Positions 58,328 to 64,000 of a stretch of DNA of 64,000 nucleotides are shown here, one piece after another (the stretch's first letter is position 1; every line of letters begins with the position of its first letter). The notes under the pieces were generated by a model. That model worked only from the letters and a program-made list of their open reading frames with translations, was not told where the DNA came from and ran no database searches. Source of the DNA: Alphaproteobacteria bacterium (GTDB lineage Bacteria; Pseudomonadota; Alphaproteobacteria; MPNO01); the NCBI GenBank assembly GCA_964291675.2, contig OZ219865.1:448001-512000 (forward strand). Reading direction: 5' to 3'. Position numbers and translations under genes: made by a program.

Positions 58328-58741
58328 ATGGAGGACAAGCCGGAACACAGGGTCGAACACCTGAAAATGGTCCAGGCCGTGATCGCGCGTCTGTCCAACC
58401 TCGGCGCGCGGGTCAAGACGTGGACCATCACGCTTGTCGGAGCGGTGTTCGTCTACGCTGCGGCGACGGGCACACAAGATATAGTGATAGTCGCGGCCGG
58501 ACTTGTCCTCGTCGTGCTGCTTGGGCTGCTGGATGCCAGGTATTTGTTCGTCGAAACGTGTTACAGGGAGCTCCACAAGGCGATCGCCTCCGGGAAGCCC
58601 GTCAAGCCTTTCGATATGGATTATCGTCCCTACGTGCGTTCGGCCCGTAGCATCGGGTGGGTCGCCCAGTCTCGGACCGTTCTCGGCTTCTATGTACCGG
58701 TCTTTGCTATGGTCGTCATCTTGGGGACGCTCGAAGTCTAG
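58328..58741 (+). CDS. Small 3-TM membrane protein (HLxMxQxxIxR...KxW family)
   Basis: EHLKMVQAVIARLSNLGARVKTWTITL, LDARYL..E..YRELH, final TM; less GC-biased codons than flanking genes. Confidence 0.7.
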   Translation: MEDKPEHRVEHLKMVQAVIARLSNLGARVKTWTITLVGAVFVYAAATGTQDIVIVAAGLVLVVLLGLLDARYLFVETCYRELHKAIASGKPVKPFDMDYRPYVRSARSIGWVAQSRTVLGFYVPVFAMVVILGTLEV

Positions 58742-59550
58742 GAGTCTGGGTCTTTCGACCCCGGGCGGGCTTCGCGCTCCCGCCGCTTTGCGGCCTCCCA
58801 GAGCGCGTCCATCTCCTCCAGCGTCGAGTCCTCGGGCGCCTTGCCGGCTTTCGCAAGACCGTCCTCTACGGCATTGAAACGGCGGACGAACTTGTCGTTG
58901 CAGTCGCGCAGCGCCTGTTCCGGGTCGATGCCGAGGCGGCGGGCGACGTTGACGCAGGCGAACAACAGGTCGCCGACCTCTTCGGCCTGCGCGGCGCCGT
59001 CGCCGCCGTCCTCGATGGCCTCCTTGAGCTCGCCGAGCTCCTCGTCGACCTTGGCGAGCGTCGCCGCCATGTCGGGCCAGTCGAAGCCGACCCGGGCCGC
59101 GCGCTCCTGGAGTTTTCGCGCGCGCAGGAGCGCGGGGAGGGCGAGGGCGACCCCGTCGAGTGCGGAGGCGCGCTCCGCCTTGGCCCGGCGCTCGCGCGCC
59201 TTGATCGCCTCCCAGCCGTCGCTCCCGTCCTTGGCGTCGCCGAAGACATGCGGATGGCGCCGGTACATCTTCCCGGTTATGCCGCGCGCCACGGAGTGGA
59301 AATCGAACGCGCCGGCCTCGCGCGCCATCTCGGCGTGGAACACGACCTGGAGCAGGAGGTCGCCGAGCTCTTCCTCCAGCGCCGCCAGATCGTTCCGCGC
59401 GATCGCGTCCGCCACCTCGTAGGCTTCCTCGATCGTATAGGGCGCGATCGTCGCAAAAGTCTGGACCGCGTCCCACGGACAGCCGCTCTCGCGGTCCCTG
59501 AGCCGCGTCATCAGGCGCAGCAGCGCCTCGATAGGGGGAACATCGTCCAT
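58738..59550 (-). CDS. mazG: Nucleoside triphosphate pyrophosphohydrolase MazG
   Basis: LRDRESGCPWD, EEAYEV, EELGDLLLQVVFH, RRHPHVF, second EEVGDLLF; start 59550 or 59571. Confidence 0.96.
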   Translation of the reverse strand: MDDVPPIEALLRLMTRLRDRESGCPWDAVQTFATIAPYTIEEAYEVADAIARNDLAALEEELGDLLLQVVFHAEMAREAGAFDFHSVARGITGKMYRRHPHVFGDAKDGSDGWEAIKARERRAKAERASALDGVALALPALLRARKLQERAARVGFDWPDMAATLAKVDEELGELKEAIEDGGDGAAQAEEVGDLLFACVNVARRLGIDPEQALRDCNDKFVRRFNAVEDGLAKAGKAPEDSTLEEMDALWEAAKRREREARPGSKDPDS

Positions 59551-59579
59551 CGGCCGCGCCCGCTCGATCATGCCCCGAC

Positions 59580-59607
59580 ATGTCGCATAATATATCTTAT
59601 GGAGACT
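59580..59607 (+). other. Probable XerCD dif site
   Basis: ATGTCGCATAA-TATATC-TTATGGAGACT: 11-6-11 layout with CGCATAA and TTATG cores like proteobacterial dif; intergenic; KOPS and gene orientation converge here. Confidence 0.8.
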
Positions 59608-59799
59608 CATGAACCACGCTGGCCAAATATGTCGATTGAGCGCGGGATGTCCACGCAGAATTCGACAGTTGCCAAAGAAGATGCGAACGGGCGGAGAAAT
59701 CGCCCTGACGAAGATTCGTATTTCGACGTTGCGGATCGAGTCGCGCCGCCTGTCAAGACCGGTAATTTCGCCGCCGGCGCGTACAAGACAGAGCAAGGG

Positions 59800-60200
59800 A
59801 CGCGTGAAGGCTGGGGTTCCGGTTGGGATCGCAGCGGCGGGTCCGTCCGCGTCCTCGGGCGGATCGGCAGTCCCGGGCAGGCGATGTTCGTCGCCCTCAC
59901 CCACCTTCTCGATGCCGACCATGCGAGTTGCAAGCGGCATTTTCACCGATTCCGGCAACGTCTCGCGCGGCGCGTGGAAACTGGACGACCAAGCGCGCCA
60001 CGCCTCGTTTCCATGTGGTGTCGTGGGGCCGCGGCGGGCTGCTGGCGGACAAGGAATGGCTGTCCCGGGCGTGGTACGAGCGCGTCGGCTCGGGCAACCC
60101 GAATTACCTGCTGCCCGGCACCGGGGTCGAAGCTGGGGCGTACTCGGCAAGCGGGGATTGGCGATTTTCAGGGTGCGCCGGGTGTGGCTGACGCGCGACG
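59800..60200 (+). pseudogene. Frameshifted rolling-circle HUH replication initiator (inovirus/IMEX-type Rep) remnant
   Basis: Collinear motifs split over three frames: FVALTH..CKRHFHRFRQRL (59887), WKLDDQAR (59975), PRFHVV (60003), WLSRAWYERVGSGNPNYLLPGTGVEA (60057-60134); boundaries approximate. Confidence 0.6.
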
Positions 60201-60406
60201 GCATGGACCTGGTGCTCGAAGGACTATCCGAATCGGATCGGCGGCTTATGCGGGTGCCGCCTGAGCGGTGGGTGTCGTGGCGCGCGAGGCGCTGGAAGCT
60301 CGTCCGGAATCCGGAGGGGCCGGTATCCGGACGATGGGATTCGAAATGTCGTTGCGTTTTCGCCGAGACTCGGGGAGCATCGCGGCGTTTGAAGTCATGG
60401 AGACTG

Positions 60407-60458
60407 GAATCTTAAGGATTGAGCGGGCTCGCCAGAGCCTGGTCAATCCTTAAGATTC
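60407..60458. repeat. AT-rich 52-nt near-perfect hairpin
   Basis: GAATCTTAAGGATTGA (60407-60422) / TCAATCCTTAAGATTC (60443-60458), inner CGGGCTC-gcca-GAGCCTG. Confidence 0.9.
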
Positions 60459-60532
60459 TCGGACTTGTACGGAAGTGGCGGATTCGGCCTCGAAATGCCG
60501 CCAGGTCCTGCCGGGAGATTGAAGGAAAGCCC

Positions 60533-60745
60533 ATGGCAACCGAGTTCGACACGCTGGAAGCAGCGAAGGACCTTGAGAAGGCGGGGTTCGAGCGGGACCA
60601 GGCGGAAGCGCTGGCGAACGCGATGCGCCGGTCGGGAAGGGCCAGGATCGGGCATTTGGCGAGCAAGGCCGATCTTTACCAGGTGGCGATCGGCATCGTG
60701 GTCGCCAACGTGGGGCTGACAACGGCCTTGGTGAAGCTCCTGTAG
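60533..60745 (+). CDS. Small DUF1640/CCDC90-like membrane-anchored protein
   Basis: FDTLEAAKDLEKAGFERDQAEAL..LASKADL plus C-terminal TM; RBS-like GAAGGA upstream. Confidence 0.75.
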   Translation: MATEFDTLEAAKDLEKAGFERDQAEALANAMRRSGRARIGHLASKADLYQVAIGIVVANVGLTTALVKLL

Positions 60746-60815
60746 GGGTGAGGTGTCATTTCGCCTTCGAGGGCCCCGGTTCGAGTTTCTTCGTCCGAAT
60801 TTTCAGCGGGAGCAA

Positions 60816-60862
60816 CGGCGTCGGCCCGGCCATGCCTTGAGAGTCGGGCCGGGCCGACGCCG
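60816..60862. terminator. GC-rich 16-bp inverted repeat between convergent genes (possible bidirectional terminator)
   Basis: CGGCGTCGGCCCGGCC (60816-60831) / GGCCGGGCCGACGCCG (60847-60862); no clear U-tract. Confidence 0.55.
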
Positions 60863-60915
60863 GGCTTGTCATCAGTGAACATATTGTATTCTCAATGAGT
60901 TATCGCCAAACGATC

Positions 60916-61686
60916 CTATGGCGTTTCAAGCCGCATGCCGTCATAGGCCGGCTCCACGTCGTCCGGCGTTGCCGCCTGCATCGCCGCGTAATCCGCGTGG
61001 TGGTTCATATGGGTCAGGATCGCGCGGCGCGGCGCGACGCGGTCGAGCCAGGCGCGGGTGACCGGCCAGTGCGCGTGCGTCGGGTGCGCGCGTTCCAGCC
61101 GCAGGCAGTCGACGATCCAGGTGTCGACGCCGGCGAGGCGGTCGAAGCTCGCCTCCGGGATACGCACCACGTCGGTCGAATAGGCCAGGCCGGCGAAGCG
61201 AAAGCCGGTCGAGGCGCAGATGCCGTGGTCCTGGTCGAACGGCACCACCGGACGGCCCTCGACCTCGAACGGCCCGTCGACGACATGGCGGCGCAGGAAC
61301 GGCGGATAGTTGCGCGCGGGACCGCTCGCGCCGTGGAAGAGATAGGGAAACCGGCTCACGATCTCGTCGAGCACCGCGGGCTCGGCATAGACCGCGATAT
61401 CGCGGCCCATCTCGCGGGCGATGCCGCGCAGGTCGTCGATGCCGTGCACGTGGTCCGCGTGGGCGTGGGTGAACAGCACGGCATCGACCCGGTCGATCCC
61501 GGCGTCGATCGCCTGGTCGCGAAGATCCGGCGCGGTGTCGACCAGGATGTTGACGCCGTCCCATTCGACGAAGATGGATGGCCGGCGGCGCCTGTTGCGC
61601 GGGTCGTTCGGGTCGCAATCGCCCCATCTTCCGCCGATCATCGGCACGCCCTGGGAGCTGCCGCAGCCGAGAACGGTAACCTTCAT
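60916..61686 (-). CDS. MBL-fold metallohydrolase (PhnP-like)
   Basis: LGCGSSQGVP, THAHADHVHG, YSTD, LTHM. Confidence 0.93.
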   Translation of the reverse strand: MKVTVLGCGSSQGVPMIGGRWGDCDPNDPRNRRRRPSIFVEWDGVNILVDTAPDLRDQAIDAGIDRVDAVLFTHAHADHVHGIDDLRGIAREMGRDIAVYAEPAVLDEIVSRFPYLFHGASGPARNYPPFLRRHVVDGPFEVEGRPVVPFDQDHGICASTGFRFAGLAYSTDVVRIPEASFDRLAGVDTWIVDCLRLERAHPTHAHWPVTRAWLDRVAPRRAILTHMNHHADYAAMQAATPDDVEPAYDGMRLETP

Positions 61687-62471
61687 CGGCCGGCGCGGGC
61701 GGCGGATTTCCTGAACAATCGGAAGAAGTTGTCCGTTGTTTGTTGAGCTATCGCCTCAGGATCGACGCCCTTCACGGCGGCGATCGCCGCGGCGGTGTGG
61801 GCGACGAAGGCGGGCTCGTTGCGCTTGCCCCGCCTGGGCACCGGCGCCAGATAGGGCGCGTCGGTCTCGACCAGGATGCGCTCCAGCGGAACCCGGGCCG
61901 CGATCCCGCGCAGCTCGTCCGACTTCCTGAAGGTCACGATGCCGGAAAACGAGATGTAGAGCCCGAGACCGACCGCCGCCTCGGCGAGCGCGGGGCCGGC
62001 GCTAAAACAGTGGATCACCCCGGTATAGGACCCCTGCCCCATCTCCTCGCGCAAGATCGCCGCGGTCTCGTCGTCCGCGTCGCGGGTATGGACGATCAGC
62101 GGCAGCCCGGTCTCGCGCGCCGCCGCGATGTGGTTGCGGAAGCTCGCCCGCTGGGCTTCGCGCGGGCTGTGGTCGTAGTAATAGTCGAGACCGGTCTCGC
62201 CGATGCCGACGACTTCGGGCCCGGCGGCGAGCGCCGCCAGGCGCGCGGGCTCGGCGATCCCCTCTTCGGCGACATTGTGCGGGTGCACCCCCACCGAGCA
62301 GTCGACCGCATCGTGGTCGCGCGCCAGCGCCCGCACCCGCTCGAAGGCGGTCAGCCTTGTGCAGATCGTCACCACCCGGCCGACGCCGGCGGCGGCGGCG
62401 CGCTCCAGCGTCTGGGCGCGGTCCTCGTCGAAGGCGTCGAAATCGAGATGGCAGTGGCTGTCGACCAGCAT
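61683..62471 (-). CDS. tatD: TatD-family hydrolase
   Basis: DSHCHL, GVHPH, GETGLDY, HCFS, ETDAPYL. Confidence 0.96.
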   Translation of the reverse strand: MLVDSHCHLDFDAFDEDRAQTLERAAAAGVGRVVTICTRLTAFERVRALARDHDAVDCSVGVHPHNVAEEGIAEPARLAALAAGPEVVGIGETGLDYYYDHSPREAQRASFRNHIAAARETGLPLIVHTRDADDETAAILREEMGQGSYTGVIHCFSAGPALAEAAVGLGLYISFSGIVTFRKSDELRGIAARVPLERILVETDAPYLAPVPRRGKRNEPAFVAHTAAAIAAVKGVDPEAIAQQTTDNFFRLFRKSAARAGR

Positions 62472-64000
62472 CAGGCCGCCCCTTCCGCTTCCTCATGGAG
62501 CCTCGGAAATACCGGGCTCGGCCTGGGCAGCGCGGTGCCGGGCGGCACAGAATCGGCGCGGCCGAGATTGGCGAATGCCCGCCGCTCGCCATCCACGCCG
62601 ATCTGGTCGAGCATGCGCCCGGCCGATTCGGGCATGAAGGGCTGCAGCAGGATGGCGATCCGGCGGATGGTCTGGATCAGGGTGGCGAGGATCGCGCCGG
62701 TGCGAAGCCTGTCCTCCTTGATCCGCGCCCACGGCGCCTCGCGGTCGACATAGGCGTTGGCCTGGCGGATCACCGCCCAGACCGCGTCCAGCGCCTCGTG
62801 GAACGCCTGCTCGCGCATGCGGTCGCGGCAGGTCTCCAAGAGCCCCTCCGCCGCGTCCAGGAGCTCGCGGTCGGAGTCCCGGTGGCCCGCCGAGTGCTCC
62901 GGTATCGTGCCGTCGAAATAGCGGTGCAGCATCGAGACCACGCGCTGCACCAGATTGCCGAGATCGTTGGCGAGGTCGCCGTTGATGCGGTTCACCATCG
63001 CGCGGTGCGAGAAATCCCCGTCATTGCCGAACGGCACCTCGCGCAGCAGGAAGTAGCGCACCTGGTCGAGCCCGTAGCGCTCGACGACCTCCAGCGGGTC
63101 GATGATGTTGCCGATCGATTTGGAGATTTTCTGGCCCTCGTTGGTCCACCAGCCATGGGCGAAGACCCGCTTCGGCGGGGCGATGCCGGCGCCCATCAGA
63201 AAGGCCGGCCAGTAGACCGCGTGAAAGCGCAGGATGTCCTTGCCCACCATGTGAAGATCGCATGGCCAATAATCTGAAAAGGCTTGCGATTCGGTGTCCG
63301 GGTAATCGACCGCGGTGGCATAGTTGGTGAGCGCGTCGAGCCACACATACATGATGTGTCCGGGGTCGTCCGGCACCGGCACGCCCCAGTTGAAGCTGGT
63401 GCGCGAGATCGACAGGTCCTTGAGCCCGCCCTTGACGAAGCTCACCACCTCGTTGCGCCGCGAGGGCGGCGCGATGAAGTCGGGGTTGGCGTCGTAGAAG
63501 GCGAGCAGCCGGTCCTGCCATTTGGAGAGATCGAAGAAATAGCTCGGCTCCTCGACCCATTCGACCTCGGCCCCCGACGGCGCCCGCTTGACCCCGTCGG
63601 CGTCGTCGGCGAGCTCGCTCTCGTCGTAAAACGCCTCGTCGCGCACCGCGTACCAGCCGGAGTAGAGGCCGAGATAGATATGGCCGTTGTCCATCAGGGC
63701 CTGCCAGATCGCCTGCGAGGCGCGGGCGTGGCGCGGCTCGGTGGTGCGGATGAAGGCGTCGTTGGAAAAATTCATCGCGCTCGCGAGGTCGCGGAAATTC
63801 TCCGACACCCGGTCGGTGAAGGATTGCGGGTCCAGCCCCGCGGCCTGCGCCGATTTCTCGACCTTCTGTCCGTGCTCGTCGGTTCCCGTCAGGAAGAACA
63901 CGTCATAGCCGTCGAGCCGCATGAAACGCGCCAGCGCGTCGCAGGCCAGCGTGGTGTAGGCGTGGCCGATATGCGGCGCGTCGTTGACGTAGTAGATCGG
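62471..64000 (-). CDS. metG: Methionine--tRNA ligase (5' end beyond window)
   Basis: PIYYVNDAPHIGHAY at window edge, TGTDEHG, YVWLDAL, KISKS. Confidence 0.97.
   Translation of the reverse strand, partial: PIYYVNDAPHIGHAYTTLACDALARFMRLDGYDVFFLTGTDEHGQKVEKSAQAAGLDPQSFTDRVSENFRDLASAMNFSNDAFIRTTEPRHARASQAIWQALMDNGHIYLGLYSGWYAVRDEAFYDESELADDADGVKRAPSGAEVEWVEEPSYFFDLSKWQDRLLAFYDANPDFIAPPSRRNEVVSFVKGGLKDLSISRTSFNWGVPVPDDPGHIMYVWLDALTNYATAVDYPDTESQAFSDYWPCDLHMVGKDILRFHAVYWPAFLMGAGIAPPKRVFAHGWWTNEGQKISKSIGNIIDPLEVVERYGLDQVRYFLLREVPFGNDGDFSHRAMVNRINGDLANDLGNLVQRVVSMLHRYFDGTIPEHSAGHRDSDRELLDAAEGLLETCRDRMREQAFHEALDAVWAVIRQANAYVDREAPWARIKEDRLRTGAILATLIQTIRRIAILLQPFMPESAGRMLDQIGVDGERRAFANLGRADSVPPGTALPRPSPVFPRLHEEAEGAA

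Follow-up and report, generated by a model that had tools for sequence, protein, structure and literature searches.

A probable remnant of a small rolling-circle replicon inserted in the dif site of an alphaproteobacterial chromosome

We describe a piece of foreign DNA that sits within the chromosomal recombination site dif of an alphaproteobacterium, whose closest named record is a metagenome-assembled genome (MAG) of Defluviicoccus sp. The foreign DNA covers positions 59603 to 60912 of the window, by which we mean the whole stretch of 64,000 nucleotides that was analysed (contig OZ219865.1 of assembly GCA_964291675.2, positions 448,001 to 512,000), and it carries the broken gene of a rolling-circle replication initiator (Rep). 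It is probably the decayed remnant of a small mobile replicon with a Rep of the PF23343 type, which entered dif by XerC/XerD recombination in the manner of the integrative mobile elements that exploit Xer (IMEXs). IMEXs are filamentous phages and their satellites that integrate at dif by means of the host recombinases XerC and XerD; they have been described for Vibrio, Xanthomonas, Neisseria and others, and those that have been characterised are mostly gamma- and betaproteobacterial.

The locus is composed of the following features:

58738 to 59571, minus strand: mazG, a host gene for a nucleotide pyrophosphohydrolase on the XerC-arm side of dif (Pfam MazG, E 5.7e-40).
59580 to 59607, plus strand: the sole complete dif-like site, with XerC arm ATGTCGCATAA (59580-59590), central region TATATC (59591-59596) and XerD arm TTATGGAGACT (59597-59607).
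59603 to 60912, plus strand: the inserted DNA, 1,310 bp long, or 1,319 bp of extra DNA if counted across the 9-nt junction overlap.
60899 to 60926, plus strand: a degenerate dif-like right junction, GTTATCGCCAA / ACGATC / CTATGGCGTTT.
60916 to 61686, minus strand: a host gene for a metallo-beta-lactamase (MBL)-fold hydrolase (Pfam Lactamase_B_2, E 4.3e-31).

Relatives of this organism hold an empty site at the same place. In a blastn comparison of 58700-62500 with four species of the same genus (L002, L008, L010 and L011), one of which is 94% identical in the flanks, 58769-59602 joins directly to 60913-62421 with an overlap of 9 nt. The empty site of these relatives reads ...ATGTCGCATAA TATATC TTATGGCGTTT (or ..GGAACTT), with the end of the MBL gene immediately after it. 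Empty sites are likewise present in contigs from the sequencing runs X1, X9 and X7, in which 59597 is joined to 60917 and 1,319 bases are skipped; these contigs carry mismatches and thus represent other strains, not excision in the same strain. The gap between MBL and mazG measures 42-264 bp in all 15 genomes of the family that have both genes on one contig, compared to 1,347 bp here, and a DNA search of 40 relatives matched only the first 44 bases (the start of mazG and dif) and a palindrome at 60407-60458. The short gaps and the joined flanks in relatives and other strains therefore identify 59603-60912 as an insertion that is specific to this lineage, or that was precisely lost by the sister species.

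An earlier note on this DNA, made from the letters alone, had proposed the relic of a Xer-exploiting element integrated at dif, and the empty sites in the four aligned relatives and in 15 of 15 testable family genomes support this proposal. It had also suggested an inspection of the mazG-MBL interval in related genomes, where empty sites rather than a conserved other gene or RNA were found; no Rfam family reached its threshold, the best matches lying far under the gathering scores. The extent of the element was underestimated, since the note ended it (59608-60405) well before the foreign DNA does, at about 60912.

To judge by its sequence and its conservation, the site beside the Rep pseudogene is the real chromosomal dif. 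MazG is conserved beside dif in relatives, and the arrangement MBL-dif-mazG with a perfect CGCATAA-N6-TTATG core recurs in 19 of 80 alphaproteobacterial loci that were fetched with the MBL protein. The 20-nt core occurs only once in the genome, even if up to 4 substitutions are allowed. In three relatives the XerD arm, TTATGGAACTT, equals that of the putative dif sites of A. tumefaciens C58 and M. loti, as they are given in Table 1 of Carnoy & Roten 2009 (PMC2731167). The host encodes two full-length XerD/XerC-like recombinases, which score 316 and 218 bits with TIGR02225, both below the XerD cut-off of 329.6; the assignment of one as XerC and of the other as XerD is presumptive. The MBL gene terminates within the XerD arm of the ancestral dif, so that its stop codon has bases in common with the recombination site; this codon is TAA in the relatives and TAG here (CTA at 60916-60918, read on the minus strand).

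The insertion lies exactly in dif, and its two junctions are unequal. The left junction reads ...ATGTCGCATAA TATATC TTATGG|AGACT... and the right junction ...GTTATCGCCAA ACGATC CTATGG|CGTTT..., with a shared 9-nt overlap ATC-YTATGG (ATCTTATGG at 59594-59602 and ATCCTATGG at 60913-60921) that extends from the central region across the border into the XerD arm. On the left, the insert contributes no more than the five outer bases of the XerD arm (AGACT, 59603-59607), which are unlike those of the relatives, and the XerD arm on the right agrees with the host arm at 10 of 11 positions. From this composition of the junctions it follows that the crossover took place inside the 9-nt overlap. The cut point of XerD, an established Xer cleavage position, lies where this overlap straddles the border.

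Position and layout thus suggest Xer catalysis, and the event probably ran as follows. A small replicon with an HUH-type rolling-circle Rep, itself presumably an autonomous circular element, would have entered the chromosome via XerC/XerD at dif, with an exchange where the central region meets the XerD arm. The mazG side thereby retained a complete dif, in which XerC arm and central region are those of the host and the XerD arm is a hybrid, and the MBL side a crippled dif-like site, whose XerC-arm side and central region are foreign and whose XerD arm is that of the host. Rep would have lost its function after entry, or was perhaps defective already on arrival, and the element can no longer replicate; a small open reading frame (ORF) of the DUF1640 type and a hairpin repeat persist in it as cargo. 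The junction layout fits either an XerD-side exchange or a complete two-strand exchange that was resolved by replication. It does not fit an XerC-only exchange like that of CTXphi (PMC3442271), which would put the host central region on the right, whereas here the host central region was kept on the left and the right one is foreign.

The same junctions speak to the possibility that the DNA arrived without site-specific recombination, by an illegitimate event or by homologous recombination of a fragment, and that its position in dif is coincidental. Such an arrival would account for a right junction that is a weak dif mimic, and chromosome terminus regions do tend to gather foreign DNA. It would, however, require that in a genome of 4.8 Mb a break hit a place no more than 9 nt away from the Xer cleavage border, while the dif on the left stayed complete and the MBL stop codon was preserved. 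We consider this explanation very improbable.

The second line of evidence for a mobile replicon is the Rep gene itself, which is spread over three reading frames of the insert:

59629 to 60412, plus strand: Rep pseudogene (HUH rolling-circle initiator of the PF23343 type), in frames a, b, c and again b, with a putative start at ATG 59629 and a putative C-terminal end.
59851 to 59979, plus strand, frame a: motif I-like block FVALTH..KRHFHRFRQRLARR (profile positions 88-132; ORF E 2.8).
59966 to 60004, plus strand, frame b: block WKLDDQAR (profile positions 135-147).
59985 to 60134, plus strand, frame c: block KRATPRFHVV..WLSRAWYERVGSGNPNYLLPGTGVEA (profile match 59991-60134, positions 144-189, E 1.1e-13).
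60119 to 60217, plus strand, frame b again: block GRSWGVLGKRG..., open to 60412 (profile positions 217-249; the frame-b ORF as a whole has E 4.1).

Translation of the plus frames of 59560-60480 yields FVALTH..SCKRHFHRFRQRLARR in frame a, GAWKLDDQAR in frame b, TPRFHVVSWGRGGLLADKEWLSRAWYERVGSGNPNYLLPGTGVEA in frame c and GRSWGVLGKRG... in frame b. The earlier note had reported Rep-like blocks in order over three frames, and all four lie where it had put them, on the plus strand and in that order. Its assignment to Rep, made from motifs, is confirmed by a phmmer search with the frame-c ORF in 1.84 billion representative proteins (E<=1e-3). This search returned 18 proteins (best E 8.4e-6, identity 43-56%, roughly residues 56-104 of the query), of which 17 match PF23343 (REP_ORF2-G2P) above the cut-off, the remaining one being an FG-GAP protein. 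PF23343 is the Rep family of inoviruses, microviruses and rolling-circle replication (RCR) plasmids.

We searched the whole genome with a custom hidden Markov model (HMM), built from an alignment (A1) of these 17 intact relatives and run with filters off against 82,031 stop-to-stop ORFs of at least 20 amino acids. At E<10 it matched three ORFs only, and these are the three plus frames of the Rep locus, in colinear order. With tblastn, the best genome match of every one of the 17 Reps was 59967-60164 (E 1e-9 to 3e-7), and no second Rep copy was found in the genome with these queries. The other matches at E<=0.003 came only from the C-terminal part (residues 141-285) of one relative, P0010, which we take to be a low-complexity tail.

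The stretch furthermore still bears a coding signal, since the GC-rich third codon position moves from frame to frame together with the blocks, from frame a (about 59820-59880) to b (about 59910-59940), c (59970-60090, where it reaches 0.80-0.93) and back to b (60120-60270). Such a frame-hopping signal is expected of a recently broken gene. It fades past about 60290, and the match to the Rep profile ends at 60217. On this sequence evidence the stretch derives from a PF23343-type Rep, and represents a pseudogene rather than a working member of the family.

The damage to the gene is extensive. To read through it takes at least three changes of frame, and the motifs that the intact relatives share are altered. 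Motif I, where FVALTH aligns to fVtLTYP in a weak match (E 4.5 for the domain alone), reads LTHL instead of the LTYP that is invariant in the alignment, so that both the invariant Y and the invariant P are replaced. WKLEPQ has become WKLDDQ, and GAPHFH of the consensus has become ATPRFH. The first histidine of the HUH motif, invariant as PHFH in 17 of 17 relatives, is thus an arginine, as the earlier note had observed. Also in agreement with that note, the catalytic tyrosine motif is missing: the 27 profile positions 190-216 (consensus VRSVRGVLSYASKYLGK..., with two invariant tyrosines and the catalytic YxxKY motif III) have no counterpart in any frame. Across this gap the frame-c residues GTGVEA (ending at 60134) and the frame-b residues GRSWGV (starting at 60125) overlap on the DNA, and the block GRSWGVLGK aligns to the GRxWG motif downstream of the missing catalytic tyrosine. 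With these losses, the Rep gene is dead.

The frame changes might in principle be assembly errors in a Rep gene that is intact in the organism. The completeness of the genome is 93.7%, lower than the 99-100% of all 11 genomes of the same genus, and the shift from frame b to c sits at a short A run, as would suit such errors. Yet indel errors would not produce the changes from LTYP to LTHL and from PHFH to PRFH, nor the absence of 27 profile positions, and an independent assembly of run X1 reproduces 59509-60946 with zero differences. A 196-nt contig from run X2, an RNA library of another study, matches 60023-60212 including the frame junction from c to b, and differs from the window only by a C to T change at 60133. 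We therefore find assembly errors hardly credible as the source of the broken frames. The contig from the RNA library could reflect transcription of the pseudogene or a carry-over of DNA, and is no proof of transcription.

Several observations weigh against an origin of the insert from a PF23343-Rep replicon that used Xer recombination. Within the Rep stretch, only the frame-c block is significant by itself, and the other three have E values of 2.8 to 27; we count them because they are the sole other matches in the genome and stand in the right order. Pfam, including the PF23343 model, and PHROGs gave 0 matches at E<=10 in each single plus frame, which we ascribe to the splitting of the gene, as each frame holds about half of the domain. 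In a tblastn search with the frame-c ORF, none of 50,697 phage and 72,556 plasmid records matched at E<=1. At the right junction, the XerC arm is poor, with 3 of 11 positions in register and 7 of 11 if it is moved by one base, and the XerD arm has a C where the host has a T. The GC skew is flat in both contigs, and hence the replication terminus cannot be placed. None of the related Reps was seen at a dif: the pattern CATAA-N6-TTATG had 0 matches in 31 Rep-bearing loci (367 kb), and CGCATAA-N6-TTATG, with up to 2 substitutions, was present in 0 of 13 Rep contigs. Finally, 9 of 15 Rep neighbourhoods contain a tyrosine integrase of their own, 2 of 15 a Zot-secretin gene and 4 of 15 neither. Dependence on Xer is thus not typical of the sampled Rep family.

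Those integrases raise the question of whether the parent of our insert also brought a tyrosine integrase, integrated beside dif and lost the integrase gene by a later deletion. A Phage_integrase gene lies within a few kb of the Rep in the nine neighbourhoods, and with only 1.3 kb left here most of the element is missing. On the other hand, the crossover falls within the 28-nt dif and there within the 9-nt overlap, and the right junction keeps a dif-like layout, which would be an unlikely coincidence for an unrelated integrase; the att sites of integrases are usually in tRNA genes. No integrase fragment was detected in the scanned frames of the Rep segment. We hold this alternative to be quite unlikely, and prefer the host Xer recombinases as the route of entry.

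Relatives of the Rep are rare among the kin of the host. In the order, 1 of 77 other genomes has a member of the family (G075, a weak match with E 6.8e-4), and in the class 1 of 400 other genomes (G166, on two short contigs). IMG/VR contributed 1 Rep locus and metagenome contigs 5 loci, with an identity of only 41-51%. A pattern scan of 185,579 species genomes yielded 27 Rep loci, all of them outside the Alphaproteobacteria, in Planctomycetota, Verrucomicrobiota, Actinomycetota, Acidobacteriota, Nitrospirota and others. An intact close relative of the Rep, at dif or elsewhere, was not found among the kin searched.

The neighbourhoods of these Reps point in several directions. Two of the integrase-bearing ones (L037 and L040) also have an FtsK-like gene, and genes with a helix-turn-helix domain occur in L015, L036, L040 and L014. 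In two Verrucomicrobia prophages (L021:7552-9516 and L031:7496-9505) a Zot/pI-like ATPase-secretin fusion lies directly upstream of the PF23343 Rep, and these two neighbourhoods are inovirus-type prophages. Circular contigs of 2.1-6.6 kb account for 4 of the 13 Rep contigs examined: L144 (6,632 nt), L146 (3,446 nt), L019 (2,147 nt) and L034 (2,329 nt) have identical ends of 50-147 nt and are therefore probably complete circles. L144 encodes a collagen-repeat protein, and the other ORFs of L144 and L146 besides Rep match no named family. One intact relative, P0012, resembles metagenomic records labelled 'Inoviridae sp.' (best 38.6%), the Reps of microviruses (13 records, 25-39% identity) and those of small RCR plasmids (20, sized 0.8-16 kb, 27-42%).

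Inoviruses, microviruses, RCR plasmids and small islands are all candidates for the parent; a filamentous prophage is one option among several. The earlier note had named a filamentous prophage as one possibility, but nothing shows a filamentous parent, as neither Zot/pI nor coat genes are present and a Zot-secretin gene stands beside only 2 of the 15 related Reps. Its further suggestion of an undescribed IMEX family with intact relatives is likewise not supported in that form: no intact relative turned up among the kin, and dif-integrating single-stranded DNA (ssDNA) phages with this type of Rep have already been published.

Besides the Rep pseudogene, the insert contains four smaller features:

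60395 to 60405, plus strand: a second copy of the XerD arm, TCATGGAGACT, identical to 59597-59607 at 10 of 11 positions, at the 3' edge of the Rep segment.
60407 to 60458, no strand assigned: a near-perfect hairpin of 52 nt (-25 kcal/mol, z -9.2; inverted repeat I1).
60533 to 60745, plus strand: the intact cargo ORF of 70 amino acids, DUF1640/CCDC90-like, with a hydrophobic C-terminal stretch and a third-position GC of 0.83-0.90.
60816 to 60862, no strand assigned: a perfect 16-nt inverted repeat (I4) 3' of the small ORF, a terminator-like stem lacking a T run.

The hairpin belongs to a dispersed palindromic repeat family of the genus with the core GGATTGAGCGGGCTCGCCAGAGCCTGGTCAA, of which there are 6 copies each in G010 and G006, 2 in G007 and 1 in the genome studied here. 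It also occurs at the relatives' loci L003, L004, L005 and L012 and, with extra contig depth, in contigs of runs X1 and X7; the right arm varies in some copies. The palindrome looks like a member of a repetitive extragenic palindrome-like or miniature inverted-repeat transposable element-like family, and had no match in Rfam. No comparable hairpin was found at the left junction (z -0.2). The 70-residue ORF matches PF07798 of Pfam with E 3.8e-6, under the curated cut-off, and phrog_17872 with E 4.4e-8. Genomes of the genus each have several copies of this family, with a best relative that is 55% identical, and on the second contig of the same genome (G000:C2:2981981-2983156) three DUF1640-like paralogues stand in tandem, with similar sets in G009, G010 and G011. 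The terminator scan returned no site.

Neither a recombinase nor Zot/pI, coat, capsid (F/VP1) or other Pfam/PHROG families were found in the frames of the Rep segment (59607-60446), and Pfam and PHROGs gave 0 matches for its two minus-strand ORFs; in the rest of the insert, the small DUF1640-like ORF alone went through these tests.

The second arm copy raises the possibility that the insert was formed in two steps, in which a module of hairpin and DUF1640-like ORF (60406-60912) entered first and the Rep element (59608-60405) then followed into the rebuilt dif. This would refine an Xer-mediated entry and does not contradict it. TYATGGAGACT (repeat family D10) occurs twice in the 64 kb, compared to 0 occurrences expected from 100 shuffles, and its second copy stands right where the Rep segment ends on the 3' side, between Rep and hairpin, where it may mark the junction of two modules. 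The Rep match and its coding signal come to an end before this point. Moreover, the families of the hairpin and of the small ORF are at home in the genus, whereas the Rep family is rare in both order and class, and the product would resemble the CTX/RS1/TLC arrays of Vibrio. Against this stands the sequence upstream of the inner repeat, which is not dif-like: its 17 nt are unlike an XerC arm plus central region and equally unlike the corresponding part of the right junction. Since exact direct repeats of 9 nt are frequent here, with three in 1.7 kb, the inner repeat is notable for its location only, and the open Rep frame b crosses it to 60412. The two TYATGGAGACT neighbourhoods share no wider homology. 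A two-step arrival therefore remains a tentative idea, which we think may well be wrong.

The MBL-mazG interval is larger than usual in some other alphaproteobacteria as well (L066, L069, L071, L128, L110, L139 and L081). These gaps contain no Rep, and their Pfam-named content consists of ordinary genes (nitroreductase, SDR, HAD, oxidoreductase). In a Rhodospirillales MAG (L084:4757-6091), 1.3 kb of low-GC DNA (0.53, compared to 0.68 in the flanks) extend from MBL to a perfect dif, on the same side of dif as the insert in our window and without a Rep. At its end stands a second fragment from the C-terminal part of MBL (Lactamase_B_2 profile positions 150-200), and the DNA could represent another integrative element of this locus. 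In a genome of the same genus with a completeness of 100% (G002:C126:5-757), the contig breaks off on the dif side at a distance of 4 nt from the stop codon of MBL, and mazG was not found in this genome at E<=1e-30. A repeat or an element could be concealed by this break in the assembly at dif.

With the known IMEXs CTXphi, VGJphi, TLCphi and the Cf-type phages, the insert shares the exact position in dif, a rolling-circle Rep, remains with no recombinase of their own in the scanned frames of the Rep segment, one functional rebuilt dif next to one defective junction, and possibly a tandem array as in Vibrio. It differs from them in its host, a Defluviicoccus-like alphaproteobacterium, in its PF23343-type Rep, in the lack of Zot/pI, coat and regulator genes, and in being dead. 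To our knowledge, RstA of CTXphi and the Cri/gII proteins of the TLC and Cf phages belong to Pfam families other than PF23343. A similar resemblance exists to small RCR plasmids and integrative RCR islands with PF23343/RepSA-like Reps, which have a Rep of the same superfamily and whose members are found on circular contigs of 2-6.6 kb and in islands with Int, Xis and FtsK genes. The islands, however, have their own integrase, and plasmid copies have not been reported at dif, whereas our insert sits in dif and has no integrase in the scanned frames, which points to Xer.

The gokushovirus prophages of enterobacteria integrate at dif (Kirchberger & Ochman 2020, PMC7062461; cited in PMC9865509), and have in common with our insert an ssDNA-phage-type element, dif motifs and XerCD, as well as a Rep, VP4 of microviruses, to which ours is distantly related. 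They differ in that our insert holds neither a capsid nor another microvirus gene, in that the window fragment matches no phage record, and in the class of the host. PMC9865509 itself reports no dif motif in the small microviruses of that study. For a Sulfitobacter microvirus (PMC9753089), integration of the phage isolate ICBM5 was reportedly not observed, and the text contains neither the word dif nor Xer. The inovirus survey of Roux et al. (PMC6813254) counts Alphaproteobacteria among the host clades, and its main text does not use the word dif. In the literature searched, we found no published alphaproteobacterial IMEX; supplementary dif lists and inovirus host tables may hold cases.

A much wider reading would see in the insert a two-module array left behind by small replicons with PF23343 Reps, which would form an undescribed family in Defluviicoccus-like alphaproteobacteria associated with sponges. 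Their entry into dif would use an exchange on the XerD side, like that of TLCphi and unlike that of CTXphi; the members would share the XerD arm TYATGGAGACT, and live, intact ones would still circulate, which would make them the first IMEX family described for the class. This is speculative, and we regard it as rather doubtful.

Since the element is dead, its direct biological weight is small. Its significance lies in the sequence-level evidence that a rolling-circle element used an alphaproteobacterial chromosomal dif as entry point. The empty sites in sister species fix the junctions to within 9 nt and thus provide a naturally mapped Xer junction, the layout of which hints at the strand exchange that was used. 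The conserved MBL-dif-mazG locus is, moreover, a convenient place to seek live elements in other alphaproteobacteria.

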